Below, in pieces: positions 1 through 3,273 of a stretch of DNA of 3,273 nt. The notes below the pieces were generated by a model. The model had not been told where the DNA came from. It worked only from the letters and a program-made list of their open reading frames with translations, and made no database searches. A program made the translations under genes and the position numbers. Each line of letters opens with the position of its first letter. Positions within the stretch are counted from its first letter, which is position 1. The stretch is from Escherichia coli (GTDB taxonomy: Bacteria > Pseudomonadota > Gammaproteobacteria > Enterobacterales > Enterobacteriaceae), in the NCBI RefSeq assembly GCF_003334255.1, contig NZ_QOWU01000123.1; one strand, written 5' to 3'.

Positions 1-29
1 ATCGACGATTGCTGGAAAGGCTGGGCCAT
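1..29 (-). CDS. 5' end of an outward-reading ORF of unknown function (MAQPFQQSS..., runs off the left edge); mirror copy of the start at 3261
   Basis: Minus-strand ATG at 29..27 preceded by the reverse complement of GGAGGAG at 39..33; nine codons are visible before the window edge. It lies inside the left inverted-repeat arm, so it is sequence-identical to the right-arm start. Only a few codons are visible, so coding status is tentative. Confidence 0.3.
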
Positions 30-132
30 ACTCCTCCGGCAGAAGCAGAAAAAGCTTATTATGCTTCCATCGGAAACAATGATCTGGCAGCCTGAGTTCA
101 CAGATAAAACACTCTCCAGGAAACCCGGGGCG
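17..132. repeat. Left arm of long inverted repeat (at least 116 bp)
   Basis: Reverse complement of 3158..3273 equals 17..132 at 115 of 116 positions; the single mismatch is at 78 (A) versus 3212. Pairing stops at 133/3157. The outer end coincides with the window edge, so the repeat may be longer. Confidence 0.93.
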
Positions 133-458
133 GTTCAGATGGGCGTCTAAGTTACCAATTCTCGTCTGATGGCTACATACGGCGGTCAGTTTACGCTTAC
201 AAAACTACAGCCCTGGGTAGTTGCAGTTCAGGACGTTGGGATGATCAGGATGAATGGGGGGAGCAAGCACGGGGAATCAGAGATGCAATTAATGCTAAAC
301 TTGATGATCCGCACAAATGGAAAAGGAAAAAATGCAGGTTGCATATGGAATTCTCCCGGGATGGCACGGCTTTAAAAATATCAACCAGTGACGGCGATAA
401 AGCCTATTGCGAAGCGATAAAGTCAGCAGCCCATAAAGCTAAATTCCCGGCTTTCAAG
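108..458 (+). pseudogene. TolA C-terminal domain (domain III)-like ORF fragment; no in-frame start, 3' end interrupted or displaced by the IS256-family element
   Basis: The frame containing 108..575 is open after a TAA at 105..107 and has no ATG or GTG before 345. Positions 276..458 translate to IRDAINAKLDDPHKWKRKKCRLHMEFSRDGTALKISTSDGDKAYCEAIKSAAHKAKFPAFK. From memory, E. coli TolA ends ...IKSAIESKF...KTCTLRIKLAPDGMLLDIKPEGGDPALCQAALAAAKLAKIPKPP...; the two Cys (codons 333..335 and 408..410) are 25 residues apart in both, with DG and GD at the same offsets. The overlapping ORF from ATG 169 is in a different frame, and a G6 run at 256..261 separates the two frames. Confidence 0.5.
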
Positions 459-459
459 G

Positions 460-481
460 GAGTGTTAGAAATTCTGTGTCA
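460..481. repeat. Putative left terminal inverted repeat of the IS256-family element
   Basis: GAGTGTTAGAAATTCTGTGTCA matches the reverse complement of 3065..3086 (GAGCGCTCAGAATTCTGTGTCA) at 16 of 22 positions, including a perfect 12-bp core. It lies 33 bp upstream of the transposase ATG. Confidence 0.35.
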
Positions 482-514
482 TTCCAGTAATATACAACCA
501 AAAAGGAATGACAC

Positions 515-1046
515 ATGTCCCAACCCTTCGATTTCGATAAAGCGCTTAAGGCCCTCCAGTCCGGCCAAGCATTAACCGGCAAGGATGGTATCCTAACGCC
601 ATTAATCAAACAGTTAACAGAAACCGCTCTGGCCGCTGAACTCGACTCCCATCTGGCTCAGGATGTTGAAGTCAATCGTAAAAATGGTTCCGGAAAAAAG
701 ACCATTAAAGCCCCGACTGGCAGCTTTGAGCTGGCAACTCCACGTGATCGTAATGGTTATTTTGAACCCCAACTGGTGAAGAAGCACCAGACCACGCTGT
801 CTGATGAGCTCGAGCGCAAGATCATTCGCCTGTTCGCGCTGGGGATGAGCTACCAGGATATCAGCCGGGAGATCGAAGATTTATCCCCTTCAGTGTTTCC
901 ACGGCTACCATCAGTGCGGTTACCGATAAAGTCATTCCTGAGTTAAAACAGTGGCAGCAGCGCCCGCTGGAGAAGGTTTATCCCTTCGTCTGGCTGGACG
1001 CCATTCACTATAAAATCCGCGAAGATGGGGGTTATCAGAGCAAGGC
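515..1046 (+). pseudogene. IS256-family transposase, 5' portion; frameshifted near 884..888 and then interrupted by IS2
   Basis: ATG at 515 with AAGGA at 503..507. The translation MSQPFDFDKALKALQSGQALTGKDGILTPLIKQLTETALAAELDSHLAQ...TPRDRNGYFEPQLVKK... carries motifs I recognise from IS256-type (Mutator-like) transposases. The starting frame stops at 944..946, but the homologous sequence continues one frame over from about 883 (IPFSVSTATISAVTDKVIPELKQWQQRPLEKVYPFVWLDAIHYKIREDGGYQSKA), implying a 1-nt indel in the C run 885..888. The frame is then broken at 1047 by IS2. Confidence 0.85.
1042..1046. repeat. IS2 target-site duplication, left copy (AAGGC)
   Basis: AAGGC immediately precedes the IS2 terminus TAGACTGG at 1047 and is repeated at 2378..2382, directly after the other terminus. 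Confidence 0.9.
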
Positions 1047-1087
1047 TAGACTGGCCCCCTAAATCTCCAGACAACCAGTATCACTTA
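1047..1087. repeat. IS2 terminal inverted repeat (insC-proximal end)
   Basis: About 41 bp, imperfectly matching the reverse complement of 2336..2377. Shared blocks are CCCC, TCCAGACA and TATCACTTA. It contains the internal palindrome TATCACTT-ATTT-AAGTGATA at 1079..1098. Confidence 0.6.
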
Positions 1088-1137
1088 TTTAAGTGATAGT
1101 CTTAATACTAGTTTTTAGACTAGTCATTGGAGAACAG

Positions 1138-1503
1138 ATGATTGATGTCTTAGGGCCGGAGAAACGCAGACGGCGTACCACACAGGAAAAGATCGCAATT
1201 GTTCAGCAGAGCTTTGAACCGGGGATGACGGTCTCCCTCGTTGCCCGGCAACATGGTGTAGCAGCCAGCCAGTTATTTCTCTGGCGTAAGCAATACCAGG
1301 AAGGAAGTCTTACTGCTGTCGCCGCCGGAGAACAGGTTGTTCCTGCCTCTGAACTTGCTGCCGCAATGAAGCAGATTAAAGAACTCCAGCGCCTGCTCGG
1401 CAAGAAAACGATGGAAAATGAACTCCTCAAAGAAGCCGTTGAATATGGACGGGCAAAAAAGTGGATAGCGCACGCGCCCTTATTGCCCGGGGATGGGGAG
1501 TAA
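1138..1503 (+). CDS. insC: IS2 OrfA (InsC), 121 aa helix-turn-helix regulator and N-terminal part of the OrfAB transposase
   Basis: ATG at 1138 with GGAGA at 1128..1132. The translation [56 protein letters not shown]...LLPGDGE matches the IS2 InsC sequence as I remember it. The ORF-track start at 1093 is an upstream in-frame extension without an RBS. Confidence 0.95.
1455..1461 (+). other. IS2 programmed -1 ribosomal frameshift site (A AAA AAG) joining insC to insD
   Basis: AAAAAAG lies in the insC/insD overlap, and insD is in the -1 frame relative to insC. This is the known IS3-family recoding arrangement that produces the OrfAB transposase. Confidence 0.8.
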
Positions 1504-2366
1504 GCTTAGTCAGCCGTTGTCTCCGGGTGTCGCGTGCGCAGTTGCACGTCATTCTCAGACGAACCGATGACTGGATGGATGGCCGCCGCAGTCGTCACAC
1601 TGATGATACGGATGTGCTTCTCCGTATACACCATGTTATCGGAGAGCTGCCCACGTATGGTTATCGTTGGGTATGGGCGCTGCTTCGCAGACAGGCAGAA
1701 CTTGATGGTATGCCTGCGATCAATGCCAAACGTGTTTACCGGATCATGCGCCAGAATGCGCTGTTGCTTGAGCGAAAACCTGCTGTACCGCCATCGAAAC
1801 GGGCACATACAGGCAGAGTGGCCGTGAAAGAAAGCAATCAGCGATGGTGCTCTGACGGGTTCGAGTTCTGCTGTGATAACGGAGAGAGACTGCGTGTCAC
1901 GTTCGCGCTGGACTGCTGTGATCGTGAGGCACTGCACTGGGCGGTGACTACCGGCGGCTTCAACAGTGAAACAGTACAGGACGTCATGCTGGGAGCGGTG
2001 GAACGCCGCTTCGGCAACGATCTTCCGTCGTCTCCAGTGGAGTGGCTGACGGATAATGGTTCATGCTACCGGGCTAATGAAACACGCCAGTTCGCCCGGA
2101 TGTTGGGACTTGAACCGAAGAACACGGCGGTGCGGAGTCCGGAGAGTAACGGAATAGCAGAGAGCTTCGTGAAAACGATAAAGCGTGACTACATCAGTAT
2201 CATGCCCAAACCAGACGGGTTAACGGCAGCAAAGAACCTTGCAGAGGCGTTCGAGCATTATAACGAATGGCATCCGCATAGTGCGCTGGGTTATCGCTCG
2301 CCACGGGAATATCTGCGGCAGCGGGCTTGTAATGGGTTAAGTGATAACAGATGTCTGGAAATATAG
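1461..2366 (+). CDS. insD: IS2 OrfB (InsD), 301 aa DDE integrase-like catalytic domain
   Basis: Open frame from GTG at 1461 to TAG at 2364..2366. The translation ...[21 protein letters not shown]...[50 protein letters not shown]... matches IS2 InsD as I remember it, with the IS3-family DDE region. It overlaps insC in the -1 frame. Confidence 0.95.
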
Positions 2367-2377
2367 GGGCAAATCCA
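2336..2377. repeat. IS2 terminal inverted repeat (insD-distal end)
   Basis: Reverse complement TGGATTTGCCCCTATATTTCCAGACATCTGTTATCACTTAAC aligns imperfectly with 1047..1087. Confidence 0.6.
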
Positions 2378-2382
2378 AAGGC
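2378..2382. repeat. IS2 target-site duplication, right copy (AAGGC)
   Basis: Direct repeat of 1042..1046, immediately after the IS2 terminus at 2377. Confidence 0.9.
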
Positions 2383-3053
2383 AGTTTATACCGTACTGGC
2401 GCTGAATCTGGAAGGCAAAAAAGAAGTCCTGGGCCTGTATTTGTCGGAAAGCGAAGGCGCTAACTTCTGGCTGTCAGTATTAAGTGATCTGCAAAACCGT
2501 GGCGTTGAAGACATTCTGATTGCCTGCGTGGATGGGCTGACCGGCTTCCCTGAAGCGATAAACAGCATTTATCCGCAGACAGAGGTACAGTTGTGCGTCA
2601 TTCACCAGATACGTAACTCGATTAAATATGTGGCGTCAAAACACCATAAAGCGTTCATGGCCGACCTGAAGCCAGTGTATCGTGCGGTGTCAAAAGAAGC
2701 AGCGGAAACGGCGCTGGATGAGCTGGAAGCGAAATGGGGGCAGCAATATCCGGTGGTGCTCCAGTCCTGGCGCCGCAAGAGGGAAAATCTGTCAGCGTAC
2801 TTCCGCTATCCGGCGAATATCCGCAAGGTGATCTACACAACCAACGCGATAGAATCAGTCCACCGCCAGTTCAGGAAACTGACCAAAACCTAAAGGTGCT
2901 TTCCCAAATGAAAACAGCCTGTTGAAGCTACTTTATCTGGGACTGATGAACGCACAGGAGAAATGGACAATGCCCATCCAAAGCTGGAATTTGACATTGT
3001 CGCAGTTAGCCATTTATTTTGAAGGGCGGCTGAATAATGTGATGACGCTGTAG
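2378..3053 (+). pseudogene. IS256-family transposase, 3' portion; additional frameshift at about 2891
   Basis: Resumes exactly after IS2 (...YQSKA / VYTVLALNLEGKKEVLGLYLSESEGANFWLSVLSDLQNRGVEDILIACVDGLTGFPEAINSIYPQT...) and runs to TAA at 2891..2893. Homology then continues one frame over from 2892 (KGAFPNENSLLKLLYLGLMNAQEKWTMPIQSWNLTLSQLAIYFEGRLNNVMTL) to TAG at 3051..3053, implying a 1-nt insertion near 2891. The motifs DILIACVDGL...FP and KW.MPIQ.W are typical of IS256-family transposases. Confidence 0.85.
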
Positions 3054-3064
3054 AATTTTTAACG

Positions 3065-3086
3065 TGACACAGAATTCTGAGCGCTC
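3065..3086. repeat. Putative right terminal inverted repeat of the IS256-family element
   Basis: Inverted partner of 460..481; begins 12 bp after the transposase stop. It contains the 8-bp palindrome GAGCGCTC. Confidence 0.35.
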
Positions 3087-3107
3087 TCAAATTAAAATCA
3101 TCGATAT

Positions 3108-3137
3108 TTAACAAGTTTAAATTATTAAGATTATTTT
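3108..3137 (+). promoter_or_regulatory. Candidate sigma70-like promoter in the AT-rich spacer, reading rightward into the right repeat arm
   Basis: TTAACA at 3108..3113 (5 of 6 to TTGACA), then 17-18 bp to TTATTT/TATTTT at 3131..3137. The surrounding 3087..3157 is about 80 percent A+T. Such matches occur readily by chance in AT-rich DNA. Confidence 0.2.
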
Positions 3138-3157
3138 AATCAAGATTAAAAGTGAAT

Positions 3158-3273
3158 CGCCCCGGGTTTCCTGGAGAGTGTTTTATCTGTGAACTCAGGC
3201 TGCCAGATCATCGTTTCCGATGGAAGCATAATAAGCTTTTTCTGCTTCTGCCGGAGGAGTATGGCCCAGCCTT
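3158..3273. repeat. Right arm of long inverted repeat (at least 116 bp)
   Basis: Reverse complement is identical to 17..132 except at one position (3212 C versus 78 A). The arm runs to the last base of the window. Confidence 0.93.
3261..3273 (+). CDS. 5' end of an outward-reading ORF of unknown function (MAQP..., runs off the right edge); mirror copy of the start at 29
   Basis: GGAGGAG at 3253..3259, then ATG at 3261; the frame is open to the window edge. Same sequence as the left-arm copy because it lies in the inverted repeat. Confidence 0.3.

Follow-up and report, generated by a model that had tools for sequence, protein, structure and literature searches.

Domain III of Escherichia coli TolA (residues ~330–421; PDB 1S62, 3QDP, 1TOL, 2X9A) has the fold α1-β1-β2-α2-α3-β3, with two cysteines at a characteristic spacing, DG/GD turns and a C-terminal edge strand that carries an aspartate and a basic residue at positions D418 and K420. 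In the host protein this domain is joined to a membrane anchor that is coupled to TolQR (domain I) and to a long helical domain II, and the gene is part of the tolQRA-tolB-pal cluster. Strand β3 (TolA 415–420) is the edge at which TolA-III binds TolB, colicin N and the phage protein g3p by β-strand addition. In the 1993 work of Levengood-Freyermuth, Click and Webster, overproduction of TolA-III in the periplasm reportedly made cells tolerant to colicins and their outer membrane leaky.

Small lipoproteins encoded on mobile elements are also known, including Llp of phage T5 and Cor of phages phi80, N15 and HK022, which have been proposed to block the entry of competitors at the outer membrane and which target the receptor FhuA. 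These are the nearest functional analogy to the gene family described here. They have no sequence or fold relationship to the TolA-III lipoprotein, and whereas Llp and Cor mask the surface receptor FhuA, the TolA-III lipoprotein would mimic a periplasmic co-receptor.

The window, that is, the whole stretch of 3,273 nucleotides of E. coli DNA that was analysed, had been noted for an ORF fragment at 108–458 resembling TolA-III. Translation of 108–575 gave one open frame containing ...IRDAINAKLDDPHKWKRKKCRLHMEFSRDGTALKISTSDGDKAYCEAIKSAAHKAKFPAFK, i.e. IRDAINAKL...KKCRLHMEFSRDGTALKISTSDGDKAYCEAIKSAAHKAKFPAFK, up to position 458, and the peptide quoted from 276..458 in the original prediction was recovered from it exactly and in the same frame. 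The other two forward frames were full of stops, the minus strand was without a notable competing ORF, and neither the other frames nor the other strand of the window contained a comparable, let alone better, match to TolA.

A search with Pfam profiles, as had been proposed with the original prediction, gave a significant match of the 86-residue fragment (201–458) to the TolA C-terminal family PF06519 (E=5.3e-12, model positions 10–79 of 96), which in an intact homologue extended over model positions 10–92 of 96 (E=4.2e-14). With the NCBIfam TolA models (TIGR02794 / NF007065) the match was confined to the C-terminal ~80–110 profile positions, with E-values of 3e-14, 1.9e-11 and 1e-9. Using phmmer against PDB sequences, the E. 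coli TolA-III chains 1s62, 3qdp, 2x9a_B and 1tol were identified at E ~1e-7, together with full-length TolA cryo-EM entries; the alignment was gapless over 80 residues and reached the extreme C-terminus of TolA. In the window fragment two cysteines lie 25 residues apart, as do C363 and C388 of E. coli TolA, and the DG/GD positions align without gaps, in agreement with the coincidence claimed beforehand. Judged by this similarity, which is far above chance, the segment 201–457 is a piece of a gene for a TolA C-terminal-domain (PF06519) protein. The only modest identity between the window subfamily and E. coli TolA-III (32%, 27 of 84 positions) could be taken to speak for a chance or low-complexity match, but profile E-values of 1e-12 to 1e-14, the gapless alignment, the conserved disulfide cysteines and a superposition of the predicted fold at 1.1 Å refute that reading, leaving it a negligible probability.

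The resemblance does not extend upstream of position 201. When 108–200 was aligned with intact genes and with plasmids that carry ISEc23, it could be rejected as gene sequence; these bases are IS ends, the open frame across them is accidental, and the 5' boundary given in the original prediction was off by 93 bases. The features of the window are collected in Table 1.

Table 1. Features identified in the 3,273-nt window
Feature	Position	Strand	Basis and remarks
Right-hand end of IS3-family (IS1203-like) element	1..137	+	Outer terminus ...CCCGGGGCGGTTCA abutting 138
ISEc23 (IS66-like) terminal remnant, 63 bp	138..200	.	Identity to ISEc23 ends; inverted-repeat end ...GCTTAC
Internal fragment of TolA-III lipoprotein gene	201..457	+, frame 3	Codons 29–113 plus 2 nt of codon 114, of 131
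IS256-family insertion sequence ending the gene fragment	458..3088	+	Imperfect 24-nt terminal inverted repeats GGGAGTGTTAGAAATTCTGTGTCA / GAGAGCGCTCAGAATTCTGTGTCA
IS2 within the IS256-family transposase gene	1047..2377	+	Inverted repeat 1056–1087 / 2338–2369; L001 annotation IS2 family transposase
Inverted second copy of IS1203-like element end	3153..3273	-	Inverted repeat; sister-plasmid annotation

Comparison of the window with itself revealed an inverted repeat of 121 nt (17–137 / 3153–3273, 98%), and the whole 3-kb segment is bracketed by two inverted IS1203-like ends (1–137 and 3153–3273). Records matching this end carry the name 'IS3-like element IS1203 family'. Annotation was available from sister plasmids (G6/7, G8 and pDETEC45, which match the window from 135 to 3147 or further at 100%), the right copy being annotated in one of them as the 3' terminal part of an IS3 family transposase. 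By alignment, 138–200 shows complete identity to the end of ISEc23 as present on plasmids L001 and L003, and the ISEc23 genes (tnpA/tnpB/transposase) are annotated in the sister plasmids immediately upstream of the gene fragment. The junction at 137/138, where the IS1203-like end meets the 63-bp ISEc23 remnant, had no record in the E. coli or plasmid collections; at this position the sister plasmids instead have ISEc23 running on leftwards, with its far end truncated in L001.

To the right of the gene fragment, the assignment of 458–3088 to the IS256 family is based on its sequence and ORFs and on the identical stretch in L001, which is annotated accordingly. The transposase gene of this element is frameshifted and split by IS2 (ORFs 515–946 and 2351–2893), and IS2 is flanked by a clean 5-bp direct duplication, AAGGC (1042–1046 / 2378–2382). 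Between the right end of the IS256-family element and the IS1203-like end there is an AT-rich stretch of 64 bp (3089–3152) that is unannotated in the sister plasmids. Beyond the IS3-family element, the sister plasmids carry the siderophore receptor gene ireA.

Homology of the fragment to intact genes begins at 201 (AAAACTACAG..., codon 29) and ends after 457, and 255 nt of the fragment contain one mismatch relative to an intact gene of plasmid pNMBU-W12E19_01 (L002:5917-6312). Compared with this gene, the window copy is without the start codon, the signal peptide, the lipobox and the last 18 codons, which encode helix α3 and strand β3. In the sister plasmids, L001 among them, a 5' piece of the gene (MGVNKIVMLAILVSFVAGCAPLHPSNCHKTT and a stop; MGV...NCHKTT and a stop) was found beside a relaxase gene ~4 kb upstream of the fragment, the two pieces being separated by ISEc45, transposase fragments and ISEc23. 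The orphan 5' piece (L001:3994-4086, 31 codons) is annotated as 'hypothetical protein, incomplete'. The KTT codons (AAAACTAC) are present on both pieces of the gene and constitute an 8-bp target duplication, as expected for insertion of an IS66-family element, which ties the two halves of the gene together. The alignments show that ISEc23 inserted at codons 29–31 and split off the start codon and signal peptide.

The 3' end was lost differently. The missing 55 bp of the gene are absent from the whole window, and direct reading of the sequence at 450–457 / 3089–3096 revealed no target duplication flanking the IS256-family element. A simple insertion of this element that left the 3' end of the gene beyond it is ruled out by these two observations, which indicate that the right flank came from elsewhere and that the downstream DNA was lost or replaced, one flank having been exchanged or deleted. 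As shown by comparison with intact genes, the IS256-family element stands in place of everything after codon 113. Helix α3 is thereby lost from the window copy, as is strand β3, through whose edge TolA-III binds its ligands.

With no start codon, no signal peptide and neither its last helix nor its last strand, the window copy is almost certainly dead, that is, unable to make an exported or ligand-binding protein. It had been predicted to be a pseudogene with no start codon and a C-terminus cut or displaced by an IS, which agrees with the split by ISEc23, with the IS256-family end and with the NCBI annotation of the identical sequence in the sister plasmids as 'cell envelope integrity TolA C-terminal domain-containing protein; incomplete; missing C-terminus' (pseudogene). 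Expression of the fragment from an internal start with retention of some activity would require ORF 339–575 (TTG/ATG, MHMEFSRDG...), which exists in the window, and public collections list the same truncated product among their predicted proteins (P0145). However, this product would have no signal peptide, helix α1 or strand β3, would be without the first cysteine of the disulfide pair and would end in IS-encoded residues; neither export to the periplasm nor a TolA-III fold would be possible for it. An active product of ORF 339–575 is effectively ruled out by this anatomy, and we regard it as extremely improbable. The window copy is an ordinary remnant wrecked by insertion sequences, already labelled as such by NCBI's pipeline, of a gene family that NCBI had already named; as yet another gene destroyed by insertion sequences nested in each other it is of no importance in itself.

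The intact gene has 131 codons, encoding a signal peptide, a linker of ~25 residues with two further cysteines, and one TolA domain III. The fragment had also been considered a possible remnant of a larger envelope protein, which is contradicted by the parent being a predicted lipoprotein of 131 aa; the intact homologues that the original prediction had proposed to look for were identified on IncI-complex plasmids, on pO157 and in lambdoid prophages. The start assigned by NCBI/PGAP to the same gene varies between an upstream ATG giving 143 aa (L004:5881-6312) and the start giving 131 aa (L002:5917-6312). The latter is preceded by a Shine-Dalgarno sequence (GAGGAG) and is the only start that yields a canonical lipoprotein signal peptide; the 143-aa start call is probably wrong. 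The N-terminus of the intact homologue contains a lipobox (MGVNKIVMLAILVSFVAG followed by C) with Ala at position +2, and the product is predicted to be exported and lipidated and, under the standard +2 rule, to be directed to the outer membrane, at its inner face.

Among 1.84 billion representative proteins, 99 relatives were identified in an exhaustive search with HMMER. Nearly all of the full-length relatives were 115–165 aa in size and had a lipobox (scored with the pattern [LVI][ASTVI][GAS]C), even at only ~27–30% identity to the query, and the combination of lipobox and short length across such divergent relatives indicates that short TolA-III lipoproteins are a broad class. The GD motif was invariant across 38 homologues, and family-wide conservation was also seen for the DG/GD turns and the 25-residue spacing of the cysteines. 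Of the cysteine pair, C98 was invariant and C73 was present in 36 of 37 homologues, the disulfide being predicted from these residues. At the position of TolA D418 an Asp was found in 29 of 37 sequences, and K or R occupied the position of K420 in 30 of 37. Residue conservation in the alignment shows that the ligand edge of β3 is retained in the intact homologues. In the window subfamily β3 reads GFDMRG (strand 124–130) as opposed to PLDFKP in E. coli TolA, and given this difference and the identity of 32% noted above, the ligand specificity of the subfamily may differ from that of host TolA-III. The ratio dN/dS between plasmid and prophage copies was ~0.10, which indicates that the intact gene is functional and under purifying selection.

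The predicted fold was assessed on the intact protein, the window fragment being without the last helix and strand. An AlphaFold2 (AF2) model of the intact homologue, based on a 38-sequence alignment, had pLDDT >95 over residues 45–131. The best PDB matches identified by Foldseek were all TolA-III structures, with 3qdp at TM 0.92 and rmsd 1.1 Å, and included 2x9a (If1 g3p-TolA complex), 3qdr (ColA complex), 1tol (M13 g3p fusion), 1s62 and 4g7x. The superposition on TolA-III that had been suggested as a structural check of the prediction was thus obtained. TonB C-terminal domain (TonB-CTD) structures were weak matches (E at least 8.6e-3, ~1e-2; TM 0.37–0.44). The TonB-CTD has a distantly related α/β fold, and the match to TolA-III is better by many orders of magnitude; membership of the TonB-CTD family is ruled out, no Pfam TonB_C match having been reported and the Foldseek TM being at most 0.44.

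Although the intact product is a member of the PF06519 family, it is not a bona fide TolA of the Tol-Pal system, because its scores are below the curated cut-offs of the NCBIfam TolA equivalogs (52.8 bits vs 213; 43.9 vs 59.45), because it has neither domain I nor domain II, with a lipoprotein signal instead, and because its gene lies outside the tol-pal operon. In contrast to host tolA, the homologues are found on plasmids and prophages, beside relaxase/trbC, hok/psiA/toxB or Q/holin/lysozyme genes. In prophages the gene is preceded by that of a second lipoprotein of 142 aa (WP_000506936; L005:4340-4768, L007:3422-3850). Like the window subfamily, this paralogue, annotated as 'TolA', is a short lipoprotein that has one TolA-III domain, and the two genes form a tandem in the same Q-to-lysis interval. 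It is much closer to the host domain, with 50 of 84 positions (60%) identical to host TolA-III and the C-terminus VLDFKP, compared with 27/84 for the window subfamily; the paralogue and the window subfamily share 26 of 84. The tandem lipoprotein pair was observed in lambdoid prophages at L005:4340-5314 and L007:3422-4396.

Taking the locus and its intact relatives together, an inactivated fragment of a gene whose intact lipoprotein product may compete with host TolA-III is probably the best explanation overall. Tethered in the periplasm at the inner face of the outer membrane, the TolA-III domain of such a lipoprotein would compete with host TolA-III for partners bound by β-strand addition. 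Candidate partners are the N-terminus of TolB, the TolA-binding site of colicin N and g3p-N1; colicin A, at the opposite face, is a further possibility. In TolA, proline substitution at the β3 residues D418/K420 abolishes binding of colicin N, g3p-N1 and TolB (Ridley and Lakey, PMC4339652). When the N-terminal 19 residues of TolB, a 25-residue Gly-Ser linker and the domain were modelled as one chain using AF2, peptide residues 3–7 adopted a β-strand, with low pLDDT (~53 mean over residues 1–10), no control and a strand partner that was not visible. The expected result of competition would be tolerance to group A (Tol-dependent) colicins and filamentous phages and/or altered Tol-Pal function, and colicin tolerance, a leaky outer membrane, or both could be the benefit for which the mobile element is selected. 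It is plausible that the protein competes for TolA ligands in the periplasm or acts as a decoy for them, and we put the complete proposal, that the intact homologues are exported, lipidated, sorted to the outer membrane and compete with host TolA-III for its ligands, just short of an even chance.

The gene is common. Using 201–458 as a gene-only query, 607 PLSDB plasmids were matched; the same query matched 1267 of the 5426 complete E. coli genomes (~23%), where 525 places were on plasmids (95–99% identity) and 820 on chromosomes (~90% identity). On pO157 it is located between a hok/psiA leading-region remnant and toxB, whereas on chromosomes (lambdoid prophages) and in phage mEp460_ev081 its place is a 'moron' slot with the Q antiterminator gene on one side and the holin/lysozyme genes on the other. 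The Q-to-holin interval is the slot of the stx genes in Stx phages. In PHROGs the gene belongs to family 5772, of 'unknown function', and neither prophage/plasmid paralogue matched any defence model of PADLOC-DB 2.0 at E<=1. Some IncI-complex plasmids carry the gene directly after a nikB-type relaxase gene and before trbC. In the prototype IncI1 plasmid R64 (L009:17391-22418), however, nikB abuts trbC with no gene between them, which rules out a core IncI transfer gene; its absence from R64 marks the gene, on comparison of these plasmid sequences, as accessory cargo and not as part of the core transfer machinery.

These neighbourhoods bear on a different function, in which the lipoprotein is a modulator of Tol-Pal that serves the mobile element and gives no protection. 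It would capture the TolB N-terminus at the outer membrane such that TolA could not pull TolB off Pal, and the loosened outer membrane would favour phage lysis and release, the release of vesicles or toxins, or DNA transfer. Such a function would fit the position of the prophage gene in the late region, where holin and lysozyme follow immediately downstream, that of the plasmid gene after a relaxase gene, and the induction of EDL933_2012, a gene of prophage CP-933O that is described as TolA (either paralogue is possible) and that was up 32-fold along with phage genes upon ciprofloxacin treatment in a transcriptome study (PMC11125564). It would also fit the full tol (leaky) phenotype of TolA β3 mutants that have lost TolB binding (PMC4339652). 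On the other hand, a gene that is missing from R64 is no core transfer gene, the gene persists on the non-mobilizable pO157, and the TolB binding on which modulation depends is itself putative. We consider modulation in place of protection unlikely, while noting that modulator and decoy effects are not mutually exclusive.

With competition for TolA ligands as the preferred reading, the family and the tandem prophage paralogue may together represent widespread, unrecognised lipoprotein 'co-receptor mimics' on mobile elements, intercepting the epitopes by which group A colicins and filamentous-phage g3p bind TolA, or the N-terminus of TolB. This extension is tentative and, in our judgement, somewhat doubtful. 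If it were true, tolerance to colicins or phages, or a tunable stability of the outer membrane, would be conferred on about a quarter of E. coli strains, and either tolerance or modulation of Tol-Pal would provide a simple example of molecular mimicry by mobile elements. A full-text literature search, which covered few subscription journals and leaves absence unproven, found no functional study of short TolA-III lipoproteins from plasmids or prophages and no published function for the family. We regard the parent family as of modest value, being common, conserved and a copy of the domain exploited by colicins and filamentous phages for entry.

In plasmids related to R64, the nikB-trbC junction appears to be a spot for the insertion of cargo, where the TolA-like gene is accompanied by a small hypothetical ORF. 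In pHUSEC411like, integrase and IncQ-type rep genes are additionally present at this junction.
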